Source of the DNA: Candidatus Latescibacterota bacterium
Lineage (GTDB): Bacteria > Latescibacterota > UBA2968
Length of the DNA: 64,000 nt
Assembly (NCBI GenBank): GCA_965204745.1
Contig: OZ242010.1
Span: 4,128,001 to 4,192,000, forward strand
Direction: 5' to 3'
Position 1 is the stretch's first letter, and each line of letters begins with the position of its first letter. Below the pieces are notes generated by a model. That model searched no databases. It saw only the letters and a list, made by a program, of their open reading frames with translations, and was not told the DNA's origin. This document shows positions 2 through 55,953 of this stretch, in pieces. The position numbers were made by a program, and so were the translations under genes.

Positions 2-3000
2 GATAGCGATACGGTTGCGCCGGAGGGCAAGCTGACCTCCGACTTACAATCGATCACGTCTGCGAGCGGCATCTATGCCAACTGGGACGATCTGACCATA
101 GATGCTTCGGGGACCAACGATGATGATCCCTGGACCTTTGGCACGACAAAGCAGTATCCGGTCTTGACGTTTGCCGGCCTGGACACCACGGCGCAGTACG
201 CTGCCCAACCCGTGAATTACGACACGGATAGCGATGGCCTCCTCGAGGTCTCGTCCTTGGCCCAACTGCATGCCATGCGCTGGGATATCAATGGCGATGG
301 TGCCATAGACTCAAGTGCCACGACCGCCGATACGACCGCCTACAACGCCGCCTTTCCCAACGGGAACTTGTCAGCGAGCAAGGGTTGCCCTTCCAGCGGT
401 TGCACTGGCTACGAACTGCTCGCCAACCTGGACTTTGACGAGAACAACGATGGCGCAATCACCCAAGCAGACGCCACCTACTGGAATAGCGGCCAAGGCT
501 GGATGCCCATCGGCTCCGACGCCAGCCCAGCGTTACGATACACAGGCGATTTCAAAGGCAACGGCTACACCGTCCAAAACCTGTTCATCAGCCGCAACAC
601 CGTTAGCTACCAAGCACTGTTCGGCGGCACCGGCACCAACTCCCGCATCGAGTCACTGGGCGTAACCGACGCCGATGTTACGGCAGACGACTTTAGTGGC
701 ATTCTGGTCGGCGGCAATCGCGGCGAAATCGTCGCCTGCTACACCACCGGTCGCATGACGGGCGACAATGTCGTCGGCGGTCTGGTCGGCTGGACCGGAG
801 GCTCCATTTCCACAAGCTACTCCCTCGCATCCGTCAGCGCAACTGAGAGGCTCGGCGGATTGGTAGGCTCAAAAGCCGCCGCCGGCTCCATAACAAACTC
901 CTACTCCACCGGCGCGGTCAGCCTCTCCAGCGGGTCGATGACATCTATCGGCGGGCTGTTGGGCGAGTCGAATGCCGGCACAGGCACGGTTAGCGGCAGC
1001 TACTGGGATACCCAAACCAGCGGGCGCACAACCAGCCTCGGCGGTAGCGGCGCGGCGGGCAAGACGACCAGCGATCTTCAGAGCCCCACCACCTACGGTG
1101 CCACCAGCAACGACACCTACTACGGTTGGAACGCCAACATAGACGGACAACCCGGCAACGACGATCCGTGGACCTTTGGCGCGATGGATCAGTATCCGGT
1201 CTTGAAGTATGCCGGCCTGGACACCACCGTGCAATTTCAGCTCCAACCCGCGGTCGTGACGTTGGCACTGACGCCCTCGTCGATCTCGGAAAACGGCGGG
1301 ATGAGCACTGTGACCGCGACGCTGGCATACCCATCGAGCGCGGCGACGACGATCACGGTGCGCCCTGTGGCGGGGGCTTACACGGTGGCGGCGGATTCGA
1401 CGATCACCATACCGGCCGGGAGCACTGCGAACGTGTCGGATACGGTGGTCATCACAGCGGTGGACAATACCCAAGACGCGCCTAATCGCGACGTGGACAT
1501 GTCCGTTGTGGCGGGCAACGCCCAAGGCGCGGGCAGTGTGACCGAGGCGACTTTAACGATCACAGACGACGACCCTGCACCGACAGCGACGTTGGCGGCG
1601 TCACCGGCGTCGATTTCGGAGAACGGCGCGGTTTCGACGGTCACGGCGTCGCTCTCGCGTCCATCGAGCACGGCGACGACGATCACGGTGCGTCCTGTGG
1701 CGGGTGCTTACACGGTGGGGGCGGATACGACGATCACCATCGCGGCCGGGGACACGATTAACGCGTCGGACACGGTGGTCATCACAGCGGTGAACAATAC
1801 CCAAGACGCGCCTAATCGCGACGTGACCGTGTCCGGTGTGTCGCGCAACGCCCAAGGCGCGGGCAGTGTGACCGGGGCGGCTTTGACGCTGACAGACGAC
1901 GACGCTGCGCCGGACGTGACGATGGTTTTGTCGCCTGCGTCGATTACAGAGAACGGCGGTGTCTCGACCGTGACAGCGAGGCTGTCTCACACGTCGAGCG
2001 ATCCGACGACGATTACGGTGACAGTGGCACCTGTGTCACCTGCGGTTATGACCGACTACACGATAAGTACGCCGGCCACGCTGACCGTCGCGGCGGGGCA
2101 AACGATGAGCACGGGCACCGTGACGATCACAGGGGTGAATAACGCCGATGCTACGGGGAACAAGACGGTGACCGTGTCGAGTACGCTAACCAACAGCGTA
2201 GGCACGGGATCGGTCACTGATGTGACGCTGACGCTTACCGATGACGACGTGCCGAACGTGACGTTGGTTTTGACTCCTTCGTCGATTACGGAGAATGCCC
2301 AGGTTTCCACGATCACGGCGACGCTGGATCGCATCACAAACATGGCGACGACGGTCACGGTTTCAGCGACCGCGGTGGCCCCTGCGGTTGCGGGCGATTT
2401 TACGCTATCGACCGAGACCACGCTGACCTTCGCGGCGAATGTGACGACGAGCACGGGCGCCGTGACGATCACCTCGGTGAACGACACGACCGATGCACCG
2501 GACAAGCGCGTGACCGTGTCTGCAACGGTGACGGGTGGCAATGGGGCGTCGCTATCGTCTGCCGTGACCCTGACGATCACAGACGATGAGGCCGCGCCGG
2601 ATGTGGCACTGACGCTGTCGCCCGCGTCGATTGCAGAGACCGGCGGTGTTTCGACGATCACGGCGACGCTGTCGCATGCGTCGAGCGCGGCAACGACGAT
2701 CACAGTGCGTCCGGTGGCGGGTGCTTACACGGTGGGGTCGGATTCGACGATCACCATCGCGGCAGGGAACACGGCGAACGCGTCGGACACAGTAGAGATC
2801 ACGGCCGTGGACAACGCGACCGATGCGCCCAACAACGATGTGACCGTGTCTGTTGTGGCGAACAACGACCAAGGCGCAGGCAGTGTGACCGGCATGGATT
2901 TGACGATCACAGACGATGACGCCGCGCCGAACGTGACACTAATGCTGTCGCCCGCGTCAATCTCGGAGAACGGCGGCGTGAGCACGGTGAGCGCGACGCT

Positions 3001-4675
3001 GACACACCCATCGAGCGCGGCGACAACGATCACGGTACGCCCGGTGGCGAATGCTTATACCGTAGGGTCGGATTCGACGATCACCATCGCGGCAGGGAAC
3101 ACGGCGAACGCGTCGGACACGGTGGCACTCACCGCCGTGGACAACGACATAGACGCATCAGACAACGCGGTGATGGTGCAGACCGCCGCTGTGGAGAACG
3201 ACCACGGCGCGGGCACCGTGCAGGCTGCGACGTTGACGATCACCGATGACGACGAGGCGGCGATTGACGTGTCGGCGATGACCACGACGACGGTCAGGCT
3301 CCACACGACAGAGTCGGGCAGGGCAGAGACCTTCACGGTCACGCTCGCCTCCGAGCCGACGGGGAACGTAGCCCTCTCGGTGGTCAGTTCAGACACGACG
3401 GAAGGCACTGTATCGCCCTCGGTGCTGACCTTCTCATCGACAACATGGCGCACGGCGCAAACCGTGACCGTGACCGGGCAGGACGATACTCCCGCCGCCG
3501 TCGATGGCAACCAGAACTATACGGTCACCCTTTCGGTGAACCAGACGGATACGCAGGACACCAACTACGACGCGCTCACCGCGATCAGCGTGTACATGGT
3601 CAACCGCGATAACGATTTCGGCTTGGACATCAGCGCGCTGACCGGGCAGGCGACAGAGGCCGGTGCCTCGGCGACCTTCACGGTGGCCCTGCTGACGCAA
3701 CCCACGGCGGCGGTGACGATTTCGGTGACGAGCCAAGACCCGAGCGAGGGGCGGGTTGAGCCTGCGATGCTGACCTTCACGACGTCAGGCTATAACACGG
3801 CACAAACCGTGACCGTGACCGGGCAAGACGACATCATCGACGACGGGAACGTCACCTGGACGGTGCGACTCGCCTCGTCAAGCGGCGATGCCAACTACAA
3901 CACCCTTTCGGACGAGGATGTTCCAGTGACGACGACCGACGATGAAGATGCGCCGACCGTGACGTTGGTGCTGATGCCCTCGTCCATCTCGGAAAACGGC
4001 GAGGTTTCCACGATCACGGCGACCCTATCGCACCCATCGAGCGCGATCACGACGATCACGGTCTCTGCTACGCCTGTGTCCCCTGCGACTGCGAGCGACT
4101 TCACGCTATCGAGTGCAGACACGCTGATCATCGCGGCGACGACCACAACGAGCACGGGCACCGTGACGATCACCGCAGAGGACAACAACGACCAGGCAGA
4201 CGAGAAGATGGTCAGGGTGTCTGCAACCGCAAACAACGCCCAAGGCATCACCGATCCTTCGCCCGTGACCCTGACCCTGACCGATGACGAAACACCGAGT
4301 GCCAACTTGGATGTGGATGGCGATGGCCGGGTGAGATTGTTCTCGGATATAATCCTGGTCATTCGATACGTCCTCTTCTTCCGGGAAGAGGCCCTCCTCA
4401 GAGGGAACGTCATCGAGCCAACTGCCACGCGCAAGACCGCTCAAGAAATTGAACCCTACCTCGACACTTTGGTCGGTCAGAACATTCTCGATGTGGATGG
4501 CGATGGCGATGTGAGGCTGTTCTCGGATATAATCCTGATCATTCGATACGTCCTCTTCTTCCGGAACGAGGCCCTCGTCAGAGGGAACGTCATCGAGCCA
4601 ACTGCTACGCGCACGACCGCTCAAGCCATTGAACCCTACATTCGAAGCCTCTATCCCGACTCCCACTTCCAATGA
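2..4675 (+). CDS. Giant surface protein/adhesin A (5'-truncated): GLUG-like tip, Calx-beta-like stalk repeats, tandem dockerin-like C-terminus
   Basis: Frame is open from position 2 and continues into ORF 164..4675; GGLVG motifs, ~110-aa repeats ending T(I/L)TDDD, two LDVDGDG..LFSDIIL.IRY repeats. Confidence 0.9.
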   Translation, partial: DSDTVAPEGKLTSDLQSITSASGIYANWDDLTIDASGTNDDDPWTFGTTKQYPVLTFAGLDTTAQYAAQPVNYDTDSDGLLEVSSLAQLHAMRWDINGDGAIDSSATTADTTAYNAAFPNGNLSASKGCPSSGCTGYELLANLDFDENNDGAITQADATYWNSGQGWMPIGSDASPALRYTGDFKGNGYTVQNLFISRNTVSYQALFGGTGTNSRIESLGVTDADVTADDFSGILVGGNRGEIVACYTTGRMTGDNVVGGLVGWTGGSISTSYSLASVSATERLGGLVGSKAAAGSITNSYSTGAVSLSSGSMTSIGGLLGESNAGTGTVSGSYWDTQTSGRTTSLGGSGAAGKTTSDLQSPTTYGATSNDTYYGWNANIDGQPGNDDPWTFGAMDQYPVLKYAGLDTTVQFQLQPAVVTLALTPSSISENGGMSTVTATLAYPSSAATTITVRPVAGAYTVAADSTITIPAGSTANVSDTVVITAVDNTQDAPNRDVDMSVVAGNAQGAGSVTEATLTITDDDPAPTATLAASPASISENGAVSTVTASLSRPSSTATTITVRPVAGAYTVGADTTITIAAGDTINASDTVVITAVNNTQDAPNRDVTVSGVSRNAQGAGSVTGAALTLTDDDAAPDVTMVLSPASITENGGVSTVTARLSHTSSDPTTITVTVAPVSPAVMTDYTISTPATLTVAAGQTMSTGTVTITGVNNADATGNKTVTVSSTLTNSVGTGSVTDVTLTLTDDDVPNVTLVLTPSSITENAQVSTITATLDRITNMATTVTVSATAVAPAVAGDFTLSTETTLTFAANVTTSTGAVTITSVNDTTDAPDKRVTVSATVTGGNGASLSSAVTLTITDDEAAPDVALTLSPASIAETGGVSTITATLSHASSAATTITVRPVAGAYTVGSDSTITIAAGNTANASDTVEITAVDNATDAPNNDVTVSVVANNDQGAGSVTGMDLTITDDDAAPNVTLMLSPASISENGGVSTVSATLTHPSSAATTITVRPVANAYTVGSDSTITIAAGNTANASDTVALTAVDNDIDASDNAVMVQTAAVENDHGAGTVQAATLTITDDDEAAIDVSAMTTTTVRLHTTESGRAETFTVTLASEPTGNVALSVVSSDTTEGTVSPSVLTFSSTTWRTAQTVTVTGQDDTPAAVDGNQNYTVTLSVNQTDTQDTNYDALTAISVYMVNRDNDFGLDISALTGQATEAGASATFTVALLTQPTAAVTISVTSQDPSEGRVEPAMLTFTTSGYNTAQTVTVTGQDDIIDDGNVTWTVRLASSSGDANYNTLSDEDVPVTTTDDEDAPTVTLVLMPSSISENGEVSTITATLSHPSSAITTITVSATPVSPATASDFTLSSADTLIIAATTTTSTGTVTITAEDNNDQADEKMVRVSATANNAQGITDPSPVTLTLTDDETPSANLDVDGDGRVRLFSDIILVIRYVLFFREEALLRGNVIEPTATRKTAQEIEPYLDTLVGQNILDVDGDGDVRLFSDIILIIRYVLFFRNEALVRGNVIEPTATRTTAQAIEPYIRSLYPDSHFQ

Positions 4676-4773
4676 AAGCCTGTTCCCTGACCGCCACAGA
4701 TAAAGATGGCGATGGCAAAATTGGATTCGACGATTTCCTCATCTCCGCCGCCGACTTTGGCTCGACAGGCTGA
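4672..4773 (+). pseudogene. Orphan/degenerate EF-hand dockerin-like anchor fragment (33 aa)
   Basis: MKACSLTATDKDGDGKIGFDDFLISAADFGSTG; ATGA overlap with stop of A; resembles 37656..37850 and the C-terminus of gene C. Confidence 0.65.
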
Positions 4774-4789: not shown

Positions 4790-4827
4790 AAAGCCCGGGT
4801 TCACAGTGAACTCAGGCTTTACTTTTT
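4790..4827 (+). terminator. Intrinsic terminator of gene A
   Basis: AAAGCCCGGGTTCAC-A-GTGAACTCAGGCTTT hairpin followed by ACTTTTT. Confidence 0.75.
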
Positions 4828-4831
4828 GGAA

Positions 4832-5130
4832 TTGGGACCTACCCCCTAGCCCCGTTACTCGCTACGCTTCGTTGTAGGCTACGCCTGTGCCTACGAGGAA
4901 AGGGGGAACTGTGAGCGGTTTTGCGAGGGGGACCTACCCCCTGGCCCCCTTCCTAAGAGGAAGGGGGAATGGCGAGAGGTTGTGCGAGGGATTGTGTGTA
5001 AGGGTTTTTGGATTTTCATGGCGTGATCCATTCGCCCAAAGCCATCAAAACAGCCCTGGATGCAAACCTTTAAGAAAGCCATGCGCTCCCCCTTTCCTTG
5101 TAGGAAAGGGGGCCGGGGGGTAGGTCCCAA
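4832..5130. repeat. MITE-like palindromic element (CCCCCT..AGGAAGGGGG family)
   Basis: 15-bp terminal inverted repeat TTGGGACCTACCCCC/GGGGGTAGGTCCCAA; core near-identical to 43387..43584 and similar to 55954..56393. Confidence 0.8.
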
Positions 5131-5189: not shown

Positions 5190-6779
5190 ATGCGTGTTGA
5201 AACGGAATATGATGCGGTTGTGCTCGGCGCGGGGCACAACAGTTTGATTTTGCAGGCTTATTTGTGTCGTGCGGGGCTGAAGGTGGTTTGTCTCGAGCGA
5301 TCACACACACCCGGAGGCGGGTTGGCTACGGTTGAAGACCCCCGCTATCCGGGTTTTTTGCACAATACGCATTCCTTTTTTCACCGCGGTGTGACGCACA
5401 TGCCGTGGTTTGATGATTTGGACCTCGAGCGGTATGGCGCGGAGTATATCGAACCCGAACTGAATGTAGCCCTGGTGCTCAAAAATGGCGATGTGCTGAA
5501 ATGGTGGACGGATTTTGATCGCACGGCGGAGAGTTTTGCCCGATTCAGCAAACGGGATGCGCGCACGTTGCGGCGATGGCGCGATGCGTTTGTGCCCATT
5601 GTAGAAAATATCCTGTCCGCCGAGGCACAGGCCCCGCCGATGCCGCCCGGGTTGCGGCGAGAAATTTTGTCGCAGACCCGAGAGGGCAGGTTGTTGCTCG
5701 CTGTCAGTGCGTTGTCGCCCCTCGAGTTCGTGCATCGGGAGTTTGAGCATCCGGTCGTTCAGGCCGGGTTGTTGTTTTTCAATGGGTTGCGCGAGGTCGA
5801 TTTGCGTGCGTCAGGGTTTGGGCATCACATTCCCGCGCTGTTGGCGAGCAAGGGCAAGGCGCAGATGTGCAAGGGCGGGTCCGGGAATTTGGCGCGGGCA
5901 TTGGTCGCTGCGGTGCGCGATATGGGCGGCGAGATTTGGTTGCAAACCGAGCCGAAGCGCATTGTGGTGGAAGGCGAGCGCGTGCTGGGCGTGGAGACCG
6001 CAGGGGGCGAGTTCATCAAAGCACCCATCGTCGTTTCGGGCTTGAATCCGCACCAGACGTTTTTCGATTTGATGGACCGCGAGGTGTTGCCCGAGTCGTG
6101 GCAACAGCGGGTTGAGGAGTTTCAGTACAATGTGCTGGCGCCGCTGTTCGCGTTGCATGTGAATTTGGACGAGCCGCCGCATTATCGCGTAGCGCGAGAG
6201 CATCCGGACATCGAGGACGCGCTGATGGTCATTTTGGGGCTGGAACGTGCGGATCAGTTTTTGGATATTGTGGCGCACCACGAGCGGGGGACAATGCCGC
6301 CGATTGTGATGTGGGGCGCGTGCCCGACGCGCTTTGACCAAACGCAGGCCCCATCGGGAAAGCACGCGGCTTTTATGTGGCAGAAGTTGCCCTTTGATTT
6401 GGCGGGCGATGCGACAAACTGGGATCGACAACGCGATGCGGTGGGGCGGGATATGCTGGCGATGTGGACGGAGTACGCGCCCAATTTGCGGGATTGCATC
6501 ATCGATTCGTTTGTCCGCAGTCCCTTGGATGTGGCACGCGCATTGCCCAATATGCAGCGCGGCGATTTGCTCATCGGCGCGTTCACACATGGGCAGGTGG
6601 GCTACAACCGCCCCTTTCCCGGCGCGGGACACTACCGCGGGTGTTTTGATGGGCTGTACCTTTGCGGCTCGTGTTGCCACCCCGGCGGCAATGTGACCGG
6701 CCTGCCGGGCTACAACGCCGCACAGGTCATTCACAGCGATCTGGACATCGCCGCTTCATGGCTACCCGTGTGCGATTGA
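5190..6779 (+). CDS. Phytoene dehydrogenase-like FAD/NAD(P)-dependent oxidoreductase
   Basis: VVLGAGHNSL Rossmann motif; C-terminal GLYLCGSCCHPGGNVTGLPGYNAA. Confidence 0.85.
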   Translation: MRVETEYDAVVLGAGHNSLILQAYLCRAGLKVVCLERSHTPGGGLATVEDPRYPGFLHNTHSFFHRGVTHMPWFDDLDLERYGAEYIEPELNVALVLKNGDVLKWWTDFDRTAESFARFSKRDARTLRRWRDAFVPIVENILSAEAQAPPMPPGLRREILSQTREGRLLLAVSALSPLEFVHREFEHPVVQAGLLFFNGLREVDLRASGFGHHIPALLASKGKAQMCKGGSGNLARALVAAVRDMGGEIWLQTEPKRIVVEGERVLGVETAGGEFIKAPIVVSGLNPHQTFFDLMDREVLPESWQQRVEEFQYNVLAPLFALHVNLDEPPHYRVAREHPDIEDALMVILGLERADQFLDIVAHHERGTMPPIVMWGACPTRFDQTQAPSGKHAAFMWQKLPFDLAGDATNWDRQRDAVGRDMLAMWTEYAPNLRDCIIDSFVRSPLDVARALPNMQRGDLLIGAFTHGQVGYNRPFPGAGHYRGCFDGLYLCGSCCHPGGNVTGLPGYNAAQVIHSDLDIAASWLPVCD

Positions 6780-6835
6780 TGCAAAGGAGAGGGTGAACGC
6801 GGGGATTGGAGAGAATGGAGGAAGGGAGAAATTTT

Positions 6836-7030
6836 TCAAGACGCGTCGTTCCCATAAGAGCGACCGCCTTCGAGGATTTTGAGTTGTTCTGCGTTTGTGG
6901 GTTCGCATTTTGATTTGGGTCGTTCAAAATTTGTGATCAACACTTCTTTGTTGAGTTTGCGCGAGGTGTCGTGTTTTTTGACCCTCATCCCCGAGTAAGA
7001 TTGCACAAAAAAATGTTGTACCCGGCGTTT
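6836..7030 (-). pseudogene. Possible C-terminal relic of a Dam-type DNA adenine methyltransferase
   Basis: ...SRKLNKEVLITNF resembles the Dam-family C-terminal E(L/V)LITN(Y/F); AT-richer than flanks; no catalytic motifs remain. Confidence 0.35.
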
Positions 7031-7066
7031 TGAGTCATTGAATTTCCTCTTCGTTACCAAGAGGTG

Positions 7067-7891
7067 TCAAGACCAGAGAAAGTGAAAGTGGGTTGCGATA
7101 GAGAGGACGAAGCCGAGGAGGGTGAGCGTGAGGCAGAGGAGGGCGATGAGGATGGTGAGGCGGCCTTCGCGGTATTGCGCGTTGGAGATGAGGGCTTGCG
7201 CGGCGAGCCAGCCGCCGATGAAGCCGCCGAGGTGCGCCCAGTTGTTGACGCCGCTCATGAGGAAGCCCATGACAAAGAGCAGAATGGCCCATTGCCATAT
7301 CTGCCGGGTCATAAGGGCGGAGATGTGGGTTTTTTGGTTGCGACCGTACACGATGAGCGCGGCAAAGAGTCCGAAAATCGCGCCGGACGCGCCCACTGTG
7401 GGATAGCCGGAAACGAGGTTGGAGAGGATAAAACCGACCGCCCCTGCGACCGTGTAGATGATAAAATAGCGCGCGGGGCCAAAGAGATGCCCCACATCCG
7501 GGCCGAGTTGCCGAATCCAAATCACATTGAACAAGATGTGGAGGAGGCTACCGTGCAAGTAAGTCGCGGTCAATACGCTCCACCACGGCGCATCGCGATA
7601 TGTCATGCCGAGTACGACCAAGGGGCGTTGGCCCGGGCTGAGCATGCCGAAAAGCCCACCGGACATCGACAGCGCGGCTTTGAGGTCGAGCAACAGGCTG
7701 ATGGCGTACAGGGCAATGCAAGCGGTGGGGATCAAGGCGAGGACGTCGATGCGACCGCCGAACAGCCGGTTCAGCGCGGGGCCGAGTCCCCAAAGATTGG
7801 GCTGATACGCGCCGCAATGCGGGCAGCGTTTCTCGTCGGTGTTGATGAGATAGCCGCAACCCGGGCAGATCATGGAGGTGCGAGGAGGCAT
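7067..7891 (-). CDS. Rhomboid intramembrane serine protease with N-terminal Zn ribbon
   Basis: HGSLLHILFN, GASGAIFG, NNWAHLGG motifs; CPGC...CPHC; start reassigned to ATG 7891. Confidence 0.9.
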   Translation of the reverse strand: MPPRTSMICPGCGYLINTDEKRCPHCGAYQPNLWGLGPALNRLFGGRIDVLALIPTACIALYAISLLLDLKAALSMSGGLFGMLSPGQRPLVVLGMTYRDAPWWSVLTATYLHGSLLHILFNVIWIRQLGPDVGHLFGPARYFIIYTVAGAVGFILSNLVSGYPTVGASGAIFGLFAALIVYGRNQKTHISALMTRQIWQWAILLFVMGFLMSGVNNWAHLGGFIGGWLAAQALISNAQYREGRLTILIALLCLTLTLLGFVLSIATHFHFLWS

Positions 7892-7895
7892 GGGA

Positions 7896-9035: not shown

Positions 9036-9049
9036 GCGGTTTGCTCCAT

Positions 9050-9082
9050 AAAAAAAACCCGTTAAATTAACGGGTTAAAAAA
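9050..9082 (-). terminator. Intrinsic terminator after tRNA-Gly
   Basis: AACCCGTTAA/TTAACGGGTT hairpin followed by a T-run on the minus strand. Confidence 0.8.
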
Positions 9083-9159: not shown

Positions 9160-9172
9160 TCGTTCAATGCTA

Positions 9173-9201: not shown

Positions 9202-9223
9202 GGTCAATTTTTCGGGAGATGTG

Positions 9224-47012: not shown

Positions 47013-47056
47013 TAAAAAGCCCTCCTGTTTTTCGCAGGAGGGCTTTTATTTTTTTA
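47013..47056. terminator. Bidirectional intrinsic terminator
   Basis: AAAAGCCCTCCTG...CAGGAGGGCTTTT with A/T runs on both sides. Confidence 0.8.
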
Positions 47057-47101
47057 TTTCCGGCCCTTGCCTTTGGTTCTCGCTTTCGCATCTTTCGTCG
47101 T

Positions 47102-50100
47102 TCAACCTGATGAGCCAAAGTTATCGGCGAAGATGAAGAAATCGGCAGAGTCAATCTGACCATCGCCATTGAGATCGCACCGGGCGTCGTATCGCTCCTG
47201 ACCGAGCCGCGAGCCGAACTTGCTGGCAAAGATCAAGAAGTCGGCGAAATTCACATTGCCATCGCCATCGAGATCGGGCGAGGGGAGCGAGACTTCGAGC
47301 GTGAAGGGCAACGAGGCCACATCGCCATCGACGTCCAACGCGCTCAAGGTGTAGGTCGCCTGGGCCTTCGCCTCACTCGGCAGACCGGAAAGGGTGCGCG
47401 TGGTCAGGTCAAAATTCAGACCATCAGGGAGGAACGGTAGCAGGATATAGACCAACATACCATCGCCACTGCTCGCTTGCGGGAGCATGAGGGACGCGAT
47501 CTCTTGGTTGACGAGATAGCTTTGTGCGGCGATAGTCGTATCGCCAAAGGTGGGCATCAGATCCGGGACTGCAAGGGTGAACGTGAAATGCGCCTCATCG
47601 CCATTGCCATCTGTGGCGGTCAGCGTGTAGGTCGTCTCGTCCATCGCCTTGATCGGTGTGCCAGACACGATGAGCGTTTCGGCATCAAAGGTCAAGCCAT
47701 CGGGCAACGCGGGGGACAATGCGTAGGTCAGCGGTTCATCGCCACCGGTCGCTTGCGGCAGCGTCAAGGACGCGATCTCTCGATGTTGCATATAGACCTG
47801 TGCGGCGACGGTCGTATCGCCGAAGGTCGGTATCGGATCGGTCGTCACAGAGAGGGTGAACATCAGGGTGGCCTCGTCGCCATCGCTGTCTGTGGCGGTC
47901 AGGGTATAGGTCGTTTCGGCTATCGCCTCGAGCGGTGTGCCAGACAACACTCGGGTCTCGGCATCGAAGTTCAAGCCCTCGGGCAGAACCGGGGTCAGTG
48001 CGTAGGTCAGCGGGGCATCGCCACCGGTCACTTGCGGAAGCGTCAAGGACATGATCTCTTGCTTCCGCGTATAGGCTTGGGCGGTCACACTCGCATCGCC
48101 AAAGGAGGGCGCCACGTTCGCAACGACGGTGAGGAAGAAACTCAGGGTGTTCTCATCGCCATCTTCATCTGTGGCGGTCAGGGTGTAGATCGCTTTTTCT
48201 ATCGCCGTGGTCGGCGTGCCAGATAGCTCCCGCGTCTCGGCGTCAAAGGTCAACCCCTCGGGCAGACCCGTCAGGCTGTAGGTTAGGTCCCCATTGCCAT
48301 CTATTGCCACGGGCAAGGTCAGCGGTTCAATGGCCTTGTCTTGCCGATAGCTTTGCGGATCAACCGCCTCGGTGAAGGTCGGCTCCGTATCCGGATCCGG
48401 CTCTGGCTCTGGATCCGTCGGATCTGTGGGCGCCTGGTCGTCGTTGGTGATCGTCCCGGTGCCGGTCGTCACAGCCAAGGCCGCGTTGACCGCGTTGCTC
48501 AGCGTCACAACCACGGTCTCATCCGGTTCTACCGCCGCATCGCCGATGACCGAGATGTCGATGGTCTTGCTGGTTTCGCCAACCGCGAAGGTCAGGGTCC
48601 CTGCGGCGAGCGCGTCGTAGTCCGTCCCCGAAGTCGCGGTGCCCGTGCCCGCGTCTGCATACGCCACCGTCACTTGTGACCCACTCGCAGAACTCAGCGA
48701 AACCGTGAAGCGGAGGGTGGGGGTCGTCCCTGCCGCGCCCTCGGCCACGCTGGGCGAATCGATGCTTAGCATGACCGCGTCATCGTCGATGATCGTACCG
48801 GTGCCGGTGAGGGTCGCGGCACTGCCGTAGAAGATGGCGCCGTTCGGGTTGCTCAGGCGCACGGCCACGGTCTCATTGGGTTCATCCATTGAATCGTCGA
48901 GCACGGAAACGTCAAAGGTCTGGCTGGTCACGCCTGCCGCAAAGGTCAGGGTCCCTGCGGTAAGCGCGGTGTAATCCATCCCCGAAGTCGCACTACCCGT
49001 GCCCGCGTCTGCATACGCCACCGTCACCTCTGCCGTGTGCGCCGGGATTAGGTACACCCGAAAGGTCAGGGTCGCGCTGGTCGCGCCTTCAATCACGCTG
49101 GACGAACCGATACTCAGCGCAGGCATGCCATCGTCGTCGATAATCGTCCCGGTGCCGGTGAGGCTCGTAGCACCGCCATCAAAGGTGGCATTGACCGGGT
49201 TGCTCAAAGTCACCACCACGGTCTCGTTCGGCTCATCATCCCCGTCGTCGCTCACAGAAACAGCGATAGTCCGGCTGGTCACGCCTGCCGCAAAGGTCAG
49301 GGTTCCTGCGGTGAGCGCGGTGTAATCCGTCCCCGAAGTCGCGCTACCCGTGCCCGCGTCTGCATACGCCACCGTCACCACCTTGCCGCTTTCTGCATTC
49401 AATCTGACGGTGAACATCAGGTCATTGTCCTCAGCCACACTCGGCGAACTGATCGAGAGCATCGGCGGCGCGTCATCATCGGTGATCGTTACCGACGCCC
49501 CGGTCACGCTCCCGGTGCCTTGGCTGTTGGTCATTGCGCCCGTCACCGTCACCGTATTGTCCGCCGCGTCTATGTCGTTGTCCACGCCGGTGATCGTCAC
49601 CGCATCCGTGTTCGTCGTCGCGTCCGCCGCGATGACGATGGTGTTGTCCGAACCCACCGTATAGACGTTTGCCACCGCCGCCACTGTGATCGTCGTCGCC
49701 GCGCTCGATGGATGCGACAGGGTCGCGCTCACCATCGCCACGCCGCCGTTCTCCGAAAAGGACTGCGGCGACGCGCTCAGGGTCACGTCCGGCGGATCGT
49801 CGTCGTCTGTCAGCGTCACAGTGCCGGTCACATTGCCCACGCCTTGGGTGTTGCGCGCCACACCGGACACGGTCACGTCGCGATTAGGCTCGTCTCGGGG
49901 GTTGTCCACCGCTGTGATGACCACCGTGTCCGACGCGTTCGCCGTGCTCCCTGCCGCGATGGTTATCGTCGAATCCGAACCCACGGTATAAGCACCCGCC
50001 ACCGGGCGCACCGTGATTGTCGTGATCGCGCTCGACTTGTGAGACAGCGTCGCCGTCACCGTCGAAACCGCGCCGTTCTCTGAAATCGACGCGGGATTCG

Positions 50101-53100
50101 ACGTCAACGTCACCGTCGGCGCGGCCTCATCATCGGTGATCGTCAGCGTCACGTTAGACGATAGCGACGCCATATTGCCACCCGTCACCGTTGCAGACAC
50201 GGTCACGCTCTTGTCCGGCGCGTCAGTCGTGTCGTTCACCGATGTGATCGTCACGGTGCCCGTGCTCGTCGTCGCACTCGCCGCGAAGGTCAGCGTGGTC
50301 GTGGTCGATAGCGTAAAATCGCCCGCAACCGCAGGCGACACAGCCATCGCTGAAACCGTGACCGTCGCCGCCGTGCTTGCGGTGCGATCCAGCGTCGCCG
50401 TGATCGTCGAAACCTGGGCATTCTCCGTAATCGACGCCGGAGTCAAAACCAACGTCACCTGCGCCACGTCGTCATCGGTAATCGTCAGTGTCGCAGCAGT
50501 GACCAATCCCACGCCCACGCTGTTGGTTAGCGTACTCGACACGGTCACCGTCTTATTCCCCGTAGCCACGTTGTTGTTCACCGTCGTGATCGTCACGGTG
50601 CCCGTGCTCATCGTTTGCCCCGCCGCGACGGTCAGCGTGGCCGGCGTACTCAGCGAGTAGTCGCCCGCAACCGCAGGTAATACAGGCGTATGTGAAACCG
50701 TAATCGTCGTCGCCTCGCTCGACGCGTGAGACAGGGTCGCTGTCACGGTCGAGATACCGCCGTTCTCTGAAATCGACGCAGGCGACAAAACCATCGTCAC
50801 GTCCGGCGCGGCCTCATCCTCTGTGATCGTCAAAGCCGTGCCGGTCACACTGCCCGCGCCTTGGTCGTTGCTCACCGCAACGGACACGGACACATCGTTG
50901 TTCGGCGCATGGATCGGGTTGTCCACGGCCGTGATCTCTACAGTGTCCGCCGCGTTCGCCGTGCTCCCGGCCGCGATGGTGATCGTCGAATCCGAACCCA
51001 CTGTGTAAGCACCCGCCACCGGGCGCACTGTAATCGTCGTGATCGCGCTCGACGAATGCGATAGGGTCGCCGTGATCGTCGAAACACCACCGTTCTCTGC
51101 AATCGACGTGGGTGCCAGCGTCAGGGCCACTGTCGGCGCATCCTCATCGTCGGTGATCGTCAGGGTCACATCAGCCGGGGCCGACGCCATATTGCCACCC
51201 GTCACCGTTGCAGACACGGTCACGCGCTTGTCCGGCGCATCAGTCGTGTCGTTCACCGATGTGATCGTCACGGTGCCCGTGCTCGTCGTCGCACTCGCCG
51301 AGACGGTCAGCGTGGTCGTGCCCGATAGCGTAAAATCGCCCGCAACCGCAGGGGCCACCTCGGTCGCTGAAACCGTGATCGTCGTCGCCATGGTTGCGGC
51401 GCGATCTAGCGTCGCCGTGATCGTGGAAACCTCGGCATTCTCCGAAATTGACGCCGGAGTCAAAACCAACGTCACCAGCGGCACGTCGTCATCGGTAATC
51501 GTCAGCGTCGCAGCAGTGACCGATCCCGCGCCCACGCTGTTGCCCACCGTGCTCGACACGGTCACCGTCTTGTTGCTCCCCAAAACCACGGCGTTGTCCA
51601 CCGTCGTGATCGTCACAGTGCCCGTGCTCGTCGTTTGCCCCGCCGCGACGGTCAGCGTGGCCGGCGTGCTCAGCGTGTAGTCGGCCGCAACCGCAGGTAA
51701 CACAGGCGTAGGGTCAACCGTAATCGTCGTCGGATCGCTCGACGTGTGAGACAGCCTCGCGGTCACGGTCGAGACACCGCCGTTCTCTGCAATCGACGCA
51801 TCAGACAAAATCATCGTCACGGTCGGCGGATCGTCGTTGTCTGTCAGCGTCACAGTGCCGGTCACACTGCCCACGCCTTGGTCGTTGCGCGCCACACCGG
51901 ACACGGACACGTCGCGATCAGGCGCGTCTCGGGTATTGTCCACCGCTGTGATGACCACCGTGTCCGACGCGTCCGCCGTGCTCCCGGCCGCGATGGTAAT
52001 CGTCGAATTCGAACCTACGGTATAAGCACCCGCCACTGGGCGCACCGTAATCGTCGTGATCGCGCTCGACTTGTGAGACAGCGTCGCCGTCACCGTCGAA
52101 ACCCCGACGTTCTCTGAAATCGACGCGGGATTCGGCGTCAACGTCACCGTCGGCGCGGCCTCATCATCGGTGATCGTCAGCGTCACGTTAGACGATAGCA
52201 CCGCCATATTGCCACCCGTCACCGTTGCAGACACGGTCACGCGCTTGTCAGGTGCGTCAGTCGTGTCGTTCACCGATGTGATCGTCACAGTGCCCGTGCT
52301 CGTCGTCACATTCGCCGCGAAGGTCAGCGTGGTCGCGGTCGATAGCGTAAAATCGCCCGTAACCGCAGGGGCCACAGGGGTCGCTGCAACCGTGACCGTC
52401 GCCGCCACGGTTGCGGTGCGATCTAGCGTCGCCGTGATCGTGGAAACCTGGGCATTCTCCGCAATCGACGCAGGAGACAAAACCAACGTCACCAGCGGCA
52501 GGTCGTCATCGGTAATCGTCAGCGTCGCATCAGTGACCGATCCCGTGCCCACGCTGTTGGCCACTGTGCTCGACACGGTCACTGTCTTGTTCCCCGTAGC
52601 CTGGGCGTTATTCACCGCCGTGATCGTCACGGTGCCCGTGCTCATCGTTTGCCCCGCCGCGACGGTCAGCGTGGTCGCCGCGCTCAGCGAGTAGTCGGTT
52701 GCAACCGCAGGTGACACAGGCGCCACTGTCACCGTAATCGTCGTCGCCTCGCTCGACGTGCGATTCAGGGTCGCGGTCACGGTCGAGACACCGCCGTTCT
52801 CTGCAATCGACGCAGGCGCCACAACCATCGTCACGGTCGGCGCAGCGTCGTCGTCCGTCAGCGTCAAAGTGCCGGTCACACTGCCCGCGCCTTGGTCGTT
52901 GTTCGCCACACTGGACAAGGTCACGTCGCGATCAGGCGCGTCTCGGGGATTGTCCACCGCTGTGATGACCACATTGTCCGACGCGTTCGCCGTACTCCCG
53001 GCCGCGATGGTAATCGTCGAATCCGAACCTACGGTATAAGCACCGGTCACCGGGCGCACCGTAATCGTCGTGATCGCGCTCGACTTGTGAGACAGTGTCG

Positions 53101-55672
53101 CTGTCACCGTCGAAAGCGCGCCGTTCTCTGAAATCGACGCGGGATTCGGCGTCAACGTCACGTCCGGCGCGGCCTCATCATCTGTGATCGTCAGGGTCTC
53201 GGAAGACAATAGCGACGCCAGATTGCCACCCGCCACCGTTGCAGACACGGTCACTTCCTTGTCAGGCGCATCGGTCGTATCGTTCACCGATGTGATCGTC
53301 ACGGTGCCCGTGCTCGTCGTCATACTCGTCGCGACGGTCAGCGTGGTCGTGCCCGATAGCGTGAAGTCACCCGCAACCGCAGGCGACACAGCCATCGCTG
53401 AAACCGTGATCGTCGTCGCCGCGGTTGCGGGGCGATCCAGAATCGCCGTGATCGTGGAAACCTCGGCATTCTCCGTAATCGACGCAGGAGACAAAACCAA
53501 CGTCACCAGTGCCACTTCGTCATCGACAATCGTCAGCGTCGCAGGAGTGACCGACCCCGTGCCCACGCTGTTGGATGGCGTGCTCCCCACGGTCACCGTC
53601 TTGTTCCCCGTAGCCACGGCGTTATTCACCGTCGTGATCGTCACGGTGCCCGTGCTCATCGTTTGCCCCGCCGCGACGGTCAGCGTGGCCGGCGTGCTTA
53701 GCGTGTAGTCGCCCGCAGCCGCAGGTGACACAGGCGTCACTGACACCGTGATCGTCGTCGCCGCGCTCGACGTGTGAGACAGAGTCGCCGTCACGGTCGA
53801 AACCTCAACCGTCTCAAAAATCGACGCCGGGGACACAATCATCGTCACGGTCGGCGCATCGTCGTCGTCTGCCAGCGTCAAAGTGCCGGTCACACTACCC
53901 ACGCCTTGGTCGTTGTGCGCCACACTGGACATGGGCACGTTGCGATCAGGCTCGTCTCGGGTGTTGTTCACCGCTCTGATGACCACCCAGTCCCACACGG
54001 GCGTCGTGGCTCCGGCGAAGATGGTGATCGTCGAATCCGTAACACCCGGAGATTGGGATTGGGTTATAACCGTGTAAGCACCCGCCACCGGGCGCACCGT
54101 AATCGTCGTCCACGCGCTCGATGGACGCGATAGTGACGCCGTGACCGTCGAAACCGCGCCCTCCGAAATCGACATGGGATTCGGCGTCAGCGTCACCGTC
54201 GGTTCAGGGTCGTCGTCCGTCAGCGTCAAAGTCACATAGGTCAGAATGCCCTCGACTTGGCTGTTGCGCGCCACACCGGCTATGGGCACGTTGCGATCAG
54301 GCTCGTCTTTGGTGTTGTCCACCGATGTGATGACCACCGTATCCGTCGCGTTCGCCGTGCTCCCGGCCGCGATGGTGATCGTCGAATCCGAACCCACGGT
54401 ATAAGCACCCGCCACCGGGCGCACCGTGATCGTCGTCGCCGTGCTCAACGACCGTACCAGCGTCGCGGTCACGGTACTCATCGCACCGGTTTCCGAGATC
54501 GTCGAGGGCATCAGTGCCAACGGCACTATCGAGGGTTGGGTATTAAATTGCTCGGTGGAGTCCATGTCGGCATACTTCAAGACCGGGTACTGATTCGTCG
54601 CGCCAAAGGCCCACGGATTGTCGTTGCCGGGTTGTCCGTCGAGGTCGCTGTTCCAGTTGGCGTAGATGCCGGTGTAGCCGGTGGGGCGTTGTAGATCGCT
54701 GGTGGAGTGGCCCGTGCCGGCGGCGCTGATCCTCTGTCCGCTGGTTGAGGTGTCCCAGTAGCTGTCGGTTACGCTACCGCTACCGGTGCTGCTCGTGGCC
54801 CCTACTAATCCGCCGATTTGGATGGCTCTGGTGTTGGTTGTGATGACCCTACCGATGGCGTAGGAGTTTATTACATCGCCCCCAGACCTATTGCCCAGCA
54901 GTCCGCCGACCGCGCCGTGCCTACTCGTTCCGACGACTTGGGCAGTGGAGTAGCTGGAGTAGATACCTATACTGAGTCTTTCTCCGGATTCTTGTTCGCC
55001 GATTAGTCCCCCAGTATTATTTCCACCCTCCACCTTTCCAGTGGTATAACAGGCGACAAGTTTGCCAGATAAATTGTAGCCGACCAGAATGCCGGTCCGG
55101 GTTCCTCCCCTGACATTGGCGTTGGTCACGCCCAGGGTTTCGATGACACCCTCATAGATTGTGCCGAACAGACCGGTAAATTGGGTGCTACGGTTGATGA
55201 ACAGGTTGTTGATGGTATGTCCGTTGCCCTTGAAATTGCCTAGGTAAACAAAAGTTCTAAGAGAGCCGATGGGGATCCAGCCGGCGCCGCTGTTCCAGTA
55301 GTTGCCGCTGTGGTCGTTGGCGTCCACATCGCCGTCGCTGTCGCTGTCAAAGTCCAGATCGTTGAGCAGTTCGTAGCCGATGCAGGTCCCGGAAGGGCAA
55401 CCCATCCGGCCGGTGCTGGTGGTGTCGTGGTTGGGAAAGGCGGCTTTGTAATGTGTGGTATCGGCAAGGGTTACGGCCTGGAAAATGAACGTTACGATAC
55501 CATCGCCGTTGAGGTCGTAGCGAATGGCGTTGAGTTGGGCGAGGTTGGTTACATCGATGTAGCCGTCATTGTCCATGTCGTAGTCGATGATGGTTTGGGC
55601 AAAAGCCGGCCCCGATGCCACCAGCATGCCCAGCACGATCAGGGCCAACAAGCGAGCGTAGCGGGGCATCAT
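47102..55672 (-). CDS. Giant surface protein/adhesin C: tip, 15 stalk repeats, Calx-beta x3, PT/PE linker, putative-Ig x4, EF-hand dockerin-like anchor
   Basis: AGAGGAG RBS then signal peptide ending AFA/Q; in-frame upstream ATG at 55879. Confidence 0.92.
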   Translation of the reverse strand: MMPRYARLLALIVLGMLVASGPAFAQTIIDYDMDNDGYIDVTNLAQLNAIRYDLNGDGIVTFIFQAVTLADTTHYKAAFPNHDTTSTGRMGCPSGTCIGYELLNDLDFDSDSDGDVDANDHSGNYWNSGAGWIPIGSLRTFVYLGNFKGNGHTINNLFINRSTQFTGLFGTIYEGVIETLGVTNANVRGGTRTGILVGYNLSGKLVACYTTGKVEGGNNTGGLIGEQESGERLSIGIYSSYSTAQVVGTSRHGAVGGLLGNRSGGDVINSYAIGRVITTNTRAIQIGGLVGATSSTGSGSVTDSYWDTSTSGQRISAAGTGHSTSDLQRPTGYTGIYANWNSDLDGQPGNDNPWAFGATNQYPVLKYADMDSTEQFNTQPSIVPLALMPSTISETGAMSTVTATLVRSLSTATTITVRPVAGAYTVGSDSTITIAAGSTANATDTVVITSVDNTKDEPDRNVPIAGVARNSQVEGILTYVTLTLTDDDPEPTVTLTPNPMSISEGAVSTVTASLSRPSSAWTTITVRPVAGAYTVITQSQSPGVTDSTITIFAGATTPVWDWVVIRAVNNTRDEPDRNVPMSSVAHNDQGVGSVTGTLTLADDDDAPTVTMIVSPASIFETVEVSTVTATLSHTSSAATTITVSVTPVSPAAAGDYTLSTPATLTVAAGQTMSTGTVTITTVNNAVATGNKTVTVGSTPSNSVGTGSVTPATLTIVDDEVALVTLVLSPASITENAEVSTITAILDRPATAATTITVSAMAVSPAVAGDFTLSGTTTLTVATSMTTSTGTVTITSVNDTTDAPDKEVTVSATVAGGNLASLLSSETLTITDDEAAPDVTLTPNPASISENGALSTVTATLSHKSSAITTITVRPVTGAYTVGSDSTITIAAGSTANASDNVVITAVDNPRDAPDRDVTLSSVANNDQGAGSVTGTLTLTDDDAAPTVTMVVAPASIAENGGVSTVTATLNRTSSEATTITVTVAPVSPAVATDYSLSAATTLTVAAGQTMSTGTVTITAVNNAQATGNKTVTVSSTVANSVGTGSVTDATLTITDDDLPLVTLVLSPASIAENAQVSTITATLDRTATVAATVTVAATPVAPAVTGDFTLSTATTLTFAANVTTSTGTVTITSVNDTTDAPDKRVTVSATVTGGNMAVLSSNVTLTITDDEAAPTVTLTPNPASISENVGVSTVTATLSHKSSAITTITVRPVAGAYTVGSNSTITIAAGSTADASDTVVITAVDNTRDAPDRDVSVSGVARNDQGVGSVTGTVTLTDNDDPPTVTMILSDASIAENGGVSTVTARLSHTSSDPTTITVDPTPVLPAVAADYTLSTPATLTVAAGQTTSTGTVTITTVDNAVVLGSNKTVTVSSTVGNSVGAGSVTAATLTITDDDVPLVTLVLTPASISENAEVSTITATLDRAATMATTITVSATEVAPAVAGDFTLSGTTTLTVSASATTSTGTVTITSVNDTTDAPDKRVTVSATVTGGNMASAPADVTLTITDDEDAPTVALTLAPTSIAENGGVSTITATLSHSSSAITTITVRPVAGAYTVGSDSTITIAAGSTANAADTVEITAVDNPIHAPNNDVSVSVAVSNDQGAGSVTGTALTITEDEAAPDVTMVLSPASISENGGISTVTATLSHASSEATTITVSHTPVLPAVAGDYSLSTPATLTVAAGQTMSTGTVTITTVNNNVATGNKTVTVSSTLTNSVGVGLVTAATLTITDDDVAQVTLVLTPASITENAQVSTITATLDRTASTAATVTVSAMAVSPAVAGDFTLSTTTTLTFAASATTSTGTVTITSVNDTTDAPDKSVTVSATVTGGNMASLSSNVTLTITDDEAAPTVTLTSNPASISENGAVSTVTATLSHKSSAITTITVRPVAGAYTVGSDSTITIAAGSTANASDTVVITAVDNPRDEPNRDVTVSGVARNTQGVGNVTGTVTLTDDDDPPDVTLSASPQSFSENGGVAMVSATLSHPSSAATTITVAAVANVYTVGSDNTIVIAADATTNTDAVTITGVDNDIDAADNTVTVTGAMTNSQGTGSVTGASVTITDDDAPPMLSISSPSVAEDNDLMFTVRLNAESGKVVTVAYADAGTGSATSGTDYTALTAGTLTFAAGVTSRTIAVSVSDDGDDEPNETVVVTLSNPVNATFDGGATSLTGTGTIIDDDGMPALSIGSSSVIEGATSATLTFRVYLIPAHTAEVTVAYADAGTGSATSGMDYTALTAGTLTFAAGVTSQTFDVSVLDDSMDEPNETVAVRLSNPNGAIFYGSAATLTGTGTIIDDDAVMLSIDSPSVAEGAAGTTPTLRFTVSLSSASGSQVTVAYADAGTGTATSGTDYDALAAGTLTFAVGETSKTIDISVIGDAAVEPDETVVVTLSNAVNAALAVTTGTGTITNDDQAPTDPTDPEPEPDPDTEPTFTEAVDPQSYRQDKAIEPLTLPVAIDGNGDLTYSLTGLPEGLTFDAETRELSGTPTTAIEKAIYTLTATDEDGDENTLSFFLTVVANVAPSFGDASVTAQAYTRKQEIMSLTLPQVTGGDAPLTYALTPVLPEGLNFDAETRVLSGTPLEAIAETTYTLTATDSDGDEATLMFTLSVTTDPIPTFGDTTVAAQVYMQHREIASLTLPQATGGDEPLTYALSPALPDGLTFDAETLIVSGTPIKAMDETTYTLTATDGNGDEAHFTFTLAVPDLMPTFGDTTIAAQSYLVNQEIASLMLPQASSGDGMLVYILLPFLPDGLNFDLTTRTLSGLPSEAKAQATYTLSALDVDGDVASLPFTLEVSLPSPDLDGDGNVNFADFLIFASKFGSRLGQERYDARCDLNGDGQIDSADFFIFADNFGSSG

Positions 55673-55953
55673 TTTGTCTCCTCTCGAGGGGGACACTGTA
55701 TTGATCATCCTAATTGACTGCTTTGCAATGAAATAGAACCACACCCAAAGACGAGGATGGGCGATATGAACGCCACTTTTCGCAGGGGAATAGGAGCTTC
55801 CAAACAGGTTTGAACAACGTCGAAAAATGGCGGTGATCATCTGAAGCCTCCCAAAAAATAGAACGAGTTGTACAGGCATGGCTTTCGCCTGCGGGTGCCA
55901 AATAACGATGGCGGAGACAAGTTAAGGTACCACGTCGTTTCTTGCAAGGGGAA

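Follow-up and report, generated by a model that had tools for sequence, protein, structure and literature searches.

The closest described systems are the opa genes of Neisseria, the bab/sab genes of Helicobacter pylori, and the tpr genes of Treponema pallidum, in which many surface paralogs carry their own expression signals, with a simple-sequence repeat at the 5' end of each gene that governs its expression individually, and mosaics that arise through gene conversion. When different species retain a long homopolymer of variable length at one fixed position ahead of their surface-protein genes, this is the hallmark of slipped-strand phase variation. A similar arrangement is found in the genome of a bacterium of the candidate phylum Latescibacterota (assembly GCA_965204745.1, contig OZ242010.1), where a window of 64,000 nucleotides (positions 4,128,001 to 4,192,000; G000:C1:4128001-4192000) contains three large genes, denominated here A, B, and C. 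The genome is a single contig of 5,482,115 bp, and positions given below are those of the window unless stated otherwise. Read from their sequence, which is also the basis for what is said of their expression and function, the three genes would encode secreted giant fibre proteins, and they probably belong to a mosaic family of approximately 46 genes that recombine with one another and are switched by poly-C tracts. Unlike the products of opa, bab/sab, and tpr, these are modular fibres encoded by 4–21 kb of DNA, rather than beta-barrel or small proteins, in an uncultured, sponge-associated candidate phylum. The tracts are also unusually long (15–25 C), and are located at the end of a conserved upstream open reading frame (ORF), while the switch is, in this case, a prediction.

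The sap locus of Campylobacter fetus, which the original prediction had taken as its model, shares with this region the presence of homologous surface genes with common DNA, some of them inverted, and the lack of a dedicated recombinase. In sap, a single promoter is carried on an invertible segment, the silent cassettes are promoterless, and the S-layer proteins have no signal peptide. In the present genome, by contrast, the copies are dispersed, no inversion was found in the assembly, and a conserved leader, with an upstream ORF, a Shine-Dalgarno site, and a Sec signal peptide, precedes each of the genes that could be scored, in contrast to the single movable promoter of sap.

A tblastn census with pieces of A and C recovered 48 family loci of at least 3 kb, which together occupy 7.0% of the genome (381,708 bp). 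Four of these loci join, two by two, into uninterrupted frames of 4,663 and 5,826 amino acids, which reduces the total to some 46 genes, and six loci (F04, F14, F31, B, F38, and F45) are split into long ORFs; the paralogs are coded F01, F02, and so on, with F10, F11, F21, and F28 among those discussed below. The head domains give 107 matches in this genome (G000). Among the 20 other genomes of the genus compared (G016, G018, G001, and others), there are 34 in G018 and two to five each in G016, G014, G006, and G031, and no head match at E ≤ 1e-10 in the other 15. The family thus defined appears, from these matches, to be lineage-specific and expanded. The idea of a self-contained kit of three genes is not compatible with this number of loci, nor with the relationships of the stalk modules.

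These modules are of three types, a, b, and c, with the variants a' and c', to which A adds two modules (X) with no assigned family. The nearest DNA relative of each of the 26 stalk modules of the trio, sought among 281 modules, lies outside the trio in 21 cases, in the same gene in four (all internal repeats of C), and in another gene of the trio in only one. The three module types are indeed common to A, B, and C, as originally described, but modules of the same type are only 83–94% identical in their DNA within the trio, which falls short of near-identity. When the three genes are compared in windows of 300 bp, the best partner is almost always a distant paralog, and a different one takes its place every few hundred bases. 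Painting with a copying model resolves A into 23 segments from 14 donors and B into 15 segments from 10 donors, while donation within the trio is limited to 64 nt from B to A and 95 nt from A to C. Gene C is more diverged, being mostly 92–95% identical to its best donors, with F11 as its closest relative overall; its painting into 66 segments is largely noise of the model at this level of identity, and does not represent 66 events.

The identity of a given gene to a single paralog may also change abruptly along its length. The successive segments of A are 99.2%, 84.5%, and 96.8% identical to F01, for example, and 92.1%, 97.1%, and 100% (over 1,177 nt) identical to F10. Gene B falls from 98.4% to 87.1% identity with F21, and rises from 72.1% to 95.5% with F02. 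Such jumps are not consistent with a single tree, and show recombination among the paralogs. Homologous recombination between paralogs thus shuffles the genes of the family, and this part of the original prediction, that recombination varies the genes, is supported both by the mosaics and by a split junction beside B, described below. The longest exact tracts in common, which offer a modest substrate for crossovers within the trio, are 125 nt for A and B, 65 nt for A and C, and 98 nt for B and C.

The TITDD-type linkers between the modules had been proposed as the points of exchange. Architectural changes do fall at the domain borders, because only such products fold, but the changes of donor at the DNA level do not. 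The 39 painted loci contain 26 switches inside stalk modules for which both flanking segments reach 150 nt or more with an identity of 96% or higher. No more than 25 nt separates five of these from a module border, where 3.9 would be expected (P = 0.35), and their phases are flat. The exchange of DNA is not directed to the linker.

The second property of the family is found in its leaders. An alignment of the 5' regions of 27 family genes reveals a constant order, which begins with a CTTGACAAA box, followed by AGGAGG and the ATG that opens the upstream ORF, a run of C, the sequence TCGGAGAGGGGGACAAA, and the ATG of the gene itself. The box, which is located approximately 110 nt before the upstream ORF, is a candidate promoter element only. 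The upstream ORF has approximately 50–65 codons, of the form M(I/L)TAIFxRCxNL...FYFIAKQSVRMISTVY, with the C run reading as prolines, and is open from its start to the tract in all 12 of the genes in which the start was found. A hexamer, TACAGT or TACAAT, stands 3 nt upstream of the tract. In B (minus strand), the upstream ORF begins at 43269, behind an AGGAGG at 43281, and the tract of 23 C on the coding strand extends over 43098..43120, with 17 nt between it and the main ATG (43080) that follows. The tract of A has 19 C, and C has only five (55688-55692, minus strand), where its paralogs have 15–25.

Homopolymers of this length are otherwise almost absent from the genome. Only 40 runs of C or G of at least 9 nt are found in the 5.48 Mb, of which 23, of 15–25 nt, are in the context of a family leader, always with C on the coding strand and 16–17 nt before the ATG of the gene. 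In total, the genome has 27 C or G runs that reach 15 nt, so these 23 represent nearly all of them, and the longest run of A or T has 12 nt. Among the remaining four, two are located ahead of giant secreted proteins of other kinds, and a run of 12 C in the family leader context heads a smaller dockerin protein. The surroundings of a long poly-C at genome position 732472 are of another type, and it, too, precedes a giant secreted protein. In the 14 genes that could be scored, the upstream ORF is fused in frame with the gene in five, overlaps its start through an ATGA in five, and overruns it by 110–119 nt in four.

The tract is not restricted to this genome. Runs of C15 are numerous in only one of the 20 congeners, G018, which has the second expanded family, and are absent from 13. 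Eight tracts were examined in five other genomes, and four of these have the family context, GTACAATGTA-Cn-GAGAGG..AAAATG, with 16, 17, and 24 C in G018 and 17 in G016; three of the four tracts examined in G018, and the one in G016, head family genes. The other four of the eight have a second context, ACTTA-Cn-GAAAAAT. Tracts in this second context are located at genome position 1833000, G018:286618, G032:2975917, G010:4774232, and G009:3220740, and at the first two of these, where the ORF is readable, the tract precedes another secreted-protein gene.

The tract is most likely a slipped-strand on/off switch, given its length, its variability, and its conserved position. Two processes would vary the family. 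The first, which the sequences show, is recombination or gene conversion among all of the paralogs, as each gene is a patchwork of tracts that are 96–100% identical to different distant copies, and family genes are also inserted, lost, and recombined at places specific to each lineage. In the second, which is proposed here, slippage in the tract would set the state of the upstream ORF, which would be fused in frame with the gene, end in an ATGA stop on its start codon, or overrun it out of frame, and each gene could be turned on or off independently. The result would be a population of cells displaying different subsets and versions of the fibres.

A number of observations weigh against this interpretation. 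Window DNA occurs in runs labelled as sponge or marine metagenomes; 16 such runs are listed, all as Logan contigs, and four of these (X10, X12, X1, and X5) were compared with positions 37000-56999. Being contigs rather than raw reads, these cannot show a minority orientation, and neither heterogeneity in tract length nor minority recombinant junctions were seen with them; they break at 43087-43129, in the poly-C tract of B, which speaks neither for nor against switching. The tract lengths of 15–25 in the assembly may be one base off, making the 5/5/4 division of the frames soft. Any of the three frame states may be the ON condition, and the tract may act on translation or on transcription; the intact gene C has only five C. 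About half of the family lacks a long tract. A scan for sigma-70 promoters upstream of B and C returned no sites, so that the co-transcription of the upstream ORF with the gene is only a possibility; the codon-position test of the upstream ORF could use only 22 ungapped columns. Polishing with misassigned reads could exaggerate the identical tracts, the flanks of B and F28 match a simple reciprocal exchange on one side only, and the switches in the sign of the GC skew are not enriched at family loci (five of 39, against 4.4 expected). An Rfam search of the leader of C found no family above threshold, and its sub-threshold, miRNA-like matches correspond to the hairpin of a repetitive extragenic palindromic (REP)-like element.

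The strongest of the other explanations is an ordinary, recent expansion of paralogs, in which the conversion is incidental and the poly-C is a 5' untranslated region, promoter-spacer, or hitch-hiking element. Here, the leader and its tract would be copied with each duplication, which means that the 23 copies are not independent events, and recombination would be rampant regardless in a genome that is rich in insertion sequences (IS) and scrambled in relation to its congeners. The silence of the contigs on the heterogeneity of the tracts is also in line with this account. It explains less readily why the tract lengths differ between nearly all of the copies (15–25), with all three frames represented, why the position of the tract is kept in species whose heads are only 41–57% identical, and why runs of this length are otherwise so rare, given that long homopolymer runs are unstable through slipped-strand mispairing. 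For these reasons, simple expansion is considered unlikely here, although it retains some weight, and the recombining, poly-C-switched family is preferred.

A much less probable alternative, and the one originally put forward, is that the three genes are a local kit dedicated to variation, in which RecA-type crossovers flip the intervening segment of 5–37 kb and swap the 3' halves of the genes, as in sap. Gene A is indeed inverted relative to B and C, the exact tracts of up to 125 nt between A and B and up to 65 nt between A and C could support crossovers, and the GC skew of the segment between 5 and 38 kb is +0.12, in comparison with approximately -0.02 on either side, changing where A and B have their 3' ends. 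Throughout the genome, however, 25 of 47 pairs of adjacent family loci have opposite orientations, which matches chance, and the limited donation within the trio, like the presence of a leader in each gene, argues against a local partnership. The features thought to link particular members of the trio are also not specific. The leader said to be shared by B and C is common to A, B, and C, but over the 480 nt that lead up to the point of signal-peptide cleavage, B and C are only 78.9% identical (rank 12 of 26; ranks in the trio run from 12 to 20), and the best match of B is F06, at 88.7%. Both A and B have anchor1, as proposed, but all 36 anchor1 tails in the family are 96–100% alike, and the 96.4% identity of A and B ranks only 23 and 27 of 35.

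Nor is there support for a downstream region shared specifically by A and B, in the form of a common orphan ORF and terminator, as they are 59% identical over 170 nt (ranks 16 and 22 of 35). The supposed orphan ORF, at 4887-5123, rests on REP-like palindromes (GGGACCTACCCCC...CCCCCTTCC-loop-GGAAGGGGG), of which the genome has more than 250 copies, and which flank the family genes on both sides. In the window, these elements are found at 4830-5130, 37300-37650, 43309-43650, and 55900-56500.

Comparison with the related genomes, which the original prediction had recommended, bears on the inversion. A block of housekeeping genes at 5190..33300, which includes an amine oxidase, hydantoinase A/B, a molybdopterin oxidoreductase, and GGT, is collinear with G016 and G018, and partly with G001; over the stretch of 4–33 kb, its order and its orientation in relation to the ancestral left neighbour are unchanged in these three congeners. 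In the congeners, the amine-oxidase end adjoins the homolog of a 1.6-kb piece that, in G000, lies 36 kb to the left of the window, and this piece likewise has a positive GC skew. The common orientation, together with the positive skew of the left neighbour, indicates an insertion rather than an inversion. The skew step is best accounted for, on this evidence, by an insertion of approximately 38 kb, which contains another family gene, A, and pieces from at least seven other ancestral places, and the present orientation of the 5–33 kb block is the ancestral one. The step was considered as an inversion scar, a reading rejected on account of this synteny and of the counts of the 39 skew switches over the whole genome, of which IS copies account for three, against 4.5 expected, with the count at family loci near expectation, as given above. 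No family gene was found in the 120-kb orthologous regions of G016, G018, and G001. A rare, reversible flip of the block may occur, and the local arrangement of A, B, and C would have no special role.

The history of the region between 37 and 3 kb to the left of the window could not be reconstructed, as it is made up of pieces of 1–3 kb from at least seven places in G016 and G018. Synteny with G016, G018, and G001 breaks every 1–30 kb, and the GC skew is scrambled, with 75 segments. For a species whose proteins are 80–90% identical to those of its congeners, this degree of rearrangement is extraordinary.

The least probable explanation, that the mosaic and the frameshift in B arose as artefacts when a metagenome-assembled genome rich in repeats was assembled or polished, can draw on exact repeats of up to 1.3 kb and on the fact that the five extra bases of B occur in no covering contig of three runs, but it is hardly credible given a single 5.48-Mb contig that resolves some 48 copies of a 1.36-kb IS, identical tracts far shorter than typical long reads, the presence of the head of C in contigs from three studies, with three to four differences in 559 nt, and the independent assemblies of G018 and G016, which show both the family and its tracts.

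A case of insertion is gene C (47102..55879, minus strand), which is intact, encodes 2,925 amino acids, and has its main ATG at 55672 and that of its upstream ORF at 55840. The whole cassette, including the leader and the REP-like flank, occupies 47054..56549 (9,496 bp, minus strand). Contigs of X10 and X12 run from 47053 straight into 56550, with sides of 30 and 32 letters at the joint, where the terminator of an aminotransferase gene leads to the stop codon of an Na+/H+ antiporter gene. The same two genes face each other in G016 as direct, convergent neighbours, with approximately 160 nt between them and no C. The contigs that skip C, together with the adjacency of its neighbours in G016, identify C as an insertion. 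Sequence comparison thus points to gain and REARRANGEMENT at family genes, with C and its leader as a 9,496-bp insertion that is probably still polymorphic. The empty site in G016 holds one REP-like element.

Other skips in the contigs are less useful. The joints between modules of B and C, a skip of 1,014 nt inside the (abc) array of C, and the skips over the IS beside B (43650 to 44998 and 43712 to 45039) all have sides of only 20–25 letters, which makes them unreadable within a repeat family and uninformative on both inversion and copy number.

Gene B (37847..43308, minus strand) consists of two overlapping ORFs, at 43308..40564 and 40591..37847, in which five extra bases at 40652..40656 break the frame into two ORFs of 914 codons. 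When these bases are removed, B reads through a normal GLUG turn. They are missing from every contig that covers the site in X10, X1, and X5, and also from F21, which is 98.6% identical to B at this site, so that the covering contigs may be those of F21. Gene B may be a fresh pseudogene, a strain variant, or the result of an assembly slip.

An IS5-like element at 43650..44998 (minus strand), with its transposase in two ORFs (44873..43861) and 17–19 copies in the genome, stands between the leader of B and a conserved small ORF at 45134-45463. Genome-wide, 102 IS-like repeat intervals were counted, another IS having approximately 48 copies of 1.36 kb. In both G016 and G018, the homolog of the small ORF adjoins a region, also denominated X here (distinct from the X modules of A), and the junction is intact. 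In G000, the small ORF adjoins the IS5-like element and the 5' end of B, while region X is 790 kb away, beginning at genome position 3,377,492, approximately 540 nt past the stop codon of F28, whose 3' flank it adjoins. This split junction is the pattern that would be left by a crossover between a gene inserted at this place and a second paralog. The reciprocal side of a simple exchange between B and F28 was not confirmed, as G016 and G018 have different neighbours past the RDD gene, and the upstream flank of F28 corresponds to neither of them. An array of the heptamer GACAACT separates the 3' flank of F28 from the gene that follows, at genome positions 3,377,560-3,377,600.

Gene A (2..4675, plus strand) is cut by the left edge of the window, which contains the 3' 1,557 codons of an open frame of 2,567 codons. 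This frame opens approximately 3 kb to the left of the window, with the C19 tract of the leader at -3010..-2992.

The architectures originally described for the three genes agree with both Pfam and the hidden Markov models (HMMs) of the modules. Gene A has heads, a-a-b-c-a-a', two X modules, c', and anchor1, and B has a head, an FN3 domain, a second head, a-a-b-c, two Calx-beta domains, and anchor1. Gene C, in turn, has a single head, a-(abc)4-a-a', three Calx-beta domains, four He_PIG domains, and a dockerin. All three proteins begin with a Sec-type signal peptide of 26 amino acids, M(M)PRYAxLLALxALGMLVASGPAFA, cleaved before Q. They resemble the giant, Ca-stiffened fibrillar adhesins of the LapA, SiiE, MpIBP, and Bap types, with which they share a tandem beta-sandwich stalk, acidic linkers (TITDDD), and a distal binding region, but they differ from these in their N-terminal GLUG heads, their Sec signal in place of a C-terminal type I signal, their dockerin-like tail, and their dozens of paralogs.

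Each head opens with a calcium (Ca)-loop/helix motif, which, in A, reads DYDxDxDGLIxIxxLAQLNAIRxDLNGDG. The last GLUG-type head of A is at 212..1246 (plus strand), the sole head of C is at 54500..55600 (minus strand), and the FN3 domain found by Pfam between the two heads of B is at 41272..41484 (minus strand). The Pfam scan of the window proteins returned no match for the heads or for the a, b, and c modules at E ≤ 0.01, and a sequence search of the PDB with the head returned none. An AlphaFold model of the head of C, from an alignment of 38 rows, has a pLDDT of 85.5 and matches PDB entry 3N6Z (E 7.8e-8; TM 0.53–0.57), as well as the N-domains of the IgA1 proteases (6XJB and 7UVK), and many of the 1,990 database homologs of the head have the GLUG domain, PF07581. 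The head is thus predicted, from the model, to be a GLUG beta-helix. The predicted fold and the GGLxG repeats are shared with BACOVA_03286 (3N6Z) and the N-domain of the streptococcal IgA1 proteases, whereas the present proteins have no protease domain, have a dockerin-like pair of Ca loops before the head, and are only 15–20% identical to these structures.

The stalks are formed by modules of 109–115 amino acids in A, where six of them, a-a-b-c-a-a', extend over 1244..3253 (plus strand), followed by the two X modules (3254..3946), which have no Pfam match at E ≤ 0.01, and by c' (3947..4291), whose DNA is 100% identical to that of a module of F10, at 1.587 Mb of the genome. The module HMM places the a-a-b-c of B at 38900..40246 and the 15 modules of C at 49472..54538, both on the minus strand. 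A profile of 20 stalk modules from the window, aligned by hhalign with a profile of five canonical Calx-beta domains, gave a probability of 95.9% and an E-value of 6e-9 over 100 columns, which suggests that the a, b, and c modules are divergent Calx-beta domains. Canonical Calx-beta domains are also present on the minus strand, with two in B (38231..38893; 83.3 bits) and three in C (48437..49468; 123.8 bits), and the four Ig-like He_PIG domains of C are at 47291..48385 (Pfam in each case).

The tails are of two types. Gene C ends in a type-I dockerin (anchor2; 47138..47275, minus strand), which, at 28.5 bits, exceeds the curated cut-off of 22.9 bits for PF00404. Anchor1, at 4292..4672 in A (plus strand) and 37850..38230 in B (minus strand), contains a duplicated DVDGDGxVRLFSDIILxIRYVLFFR unit, and remains below this cut-off, with 17.9 bits in B and no match in A; a sequence search of the PDB gave weak matches to dockerin-bearing chains (E 0.11–0.16). 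On this basis, anchor1 is dockerin-like only. It terminates 36 family genes, all of which stop at TGA, and in at least 14 of these, under a strict pattern, an intact-looking type-I dockerin follows the stop in the +2 frame. In B, a complete, C-type relic of this kind lies directly past the stop codon (37656..37844, minus strand), while A has half a type-I dockerin, out of frame, at 4699..4772 (plus strand), also directly past the stop, followed by a terminator-like hairpin and T run (4791..4819, plus strand) and by the REP-like palindrome array of 4830..5130, which includes the orphan ORF. The position of these dockerins indicates that anchor1 and its stop codon stand before an older dockerin tail. 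Even in diverged copies, the residues of the dead dockerin still agree with the consensus of the domain. Gene conversion may be renewing what is otherwise a relic, or recoding may allow the dockerin to be translated.

A possible counterpart for these tails is found in three cohesin matches (PF00963) in the genome, one in a 1,075-amino-acid protein with a sorting tail of the type IX secretion system (T9SS; Por_Secre_tail), one at the N-terminus of a 1,917-amino-acid protein with lamin-tail domains, and one in a 425-amino-acid protein that also bears a dockerin. The cohesin proteins at genome positions 1964304-1967531 and 3220773-3226526 end in domains of the type IX secretion sorting type, and one of the two has seven lamin-tail domains. 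Up to 98 dockerin loci were found by tblastn in the whole genome, in comparison with these three cohesins. The type-I dockerin of C, the three cohesin modules, and the sorting tail of one of them resemble the cohesin–dockerin pairing of the cellulosomes, which differ in their glycoside hydrolases, absent here, where most members use a divergent anchor1 in front of a dead dockerin. We infer from these domains that the fibres may dock onto cohesin scaffolds. A complex prediction that paired anchor1 and the cohesin at the N-terminus of the 1,917-amino-acid protein scored 0.02, and argues neither for nor against binding.

The persistence of symbionts in a sponge, an animal that eats bacteria, is an open question, and a variable surface display is a little-explored candidate answer. 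Tentatively, the bacterium could be a mutualistic sponge symbiont with a pathogen-style variable surface, which combines at least two dozen fibre genes gated by poly-C through the three states of the upstream ORF, including the ATGA overlap, a continuous exchange of heads, stalk modules, and tails among these genes by gene conversion, and docking on T9SS-anchored cohesins, in which case every cell would show a different set of fibres to the phagocytes of the host or to phages. If the tracts do switch, the “contingency locus” strategy of pathogens would also be found in a mutualist of a candidate phylum, and on far larger genes. Some 7% of the genome is occupied by a single family of mosaic fibre genes, of which most sister species have almost none, and nearly all of the long homopolymers precede these genes. 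The annotation of such genomes requires care, as the family genes, their upstream ORFs, and the dead dockerins are easily mis-called.

Eukaryotic-like repeat proteins have been reported from sponge Latescibacterota genomes (PMC12993501), a study in which a search of passages by term gave no occurrence of Calx, dockerin, adhes, cadherin, or transposase. A search of the literature on sponge symbionts for Calx-beta, adhesins, or family expansion returned nothing on this family among the papers listed, and a search for phase variation, homopolymeric loci, or contingency loci in these symbionts likewise found no paper among those listed.

A number of other genes of the window deserve mention. A 934-amino-acid protein encoded at 9379-12183 has an N-terminal dockerin, ASH/HYDIN-type Ig domains, and an EF-hand, and keeps the same neighbour genes in the congeners; a tRNA gene is located just upstream of it, at 9086-9159 on the minus strand. 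A HicB-like antitoxin gene, for which no obvious HicA partner was called, occupies 18852-19292. At 58977-62890, two tandem pairs of genes encode an N6/N4 DNA methylase and a BsaWI-like restriction endonuclease, in a stretch of low GC content (0.43–0.50, in comparison with approximately 0.58).

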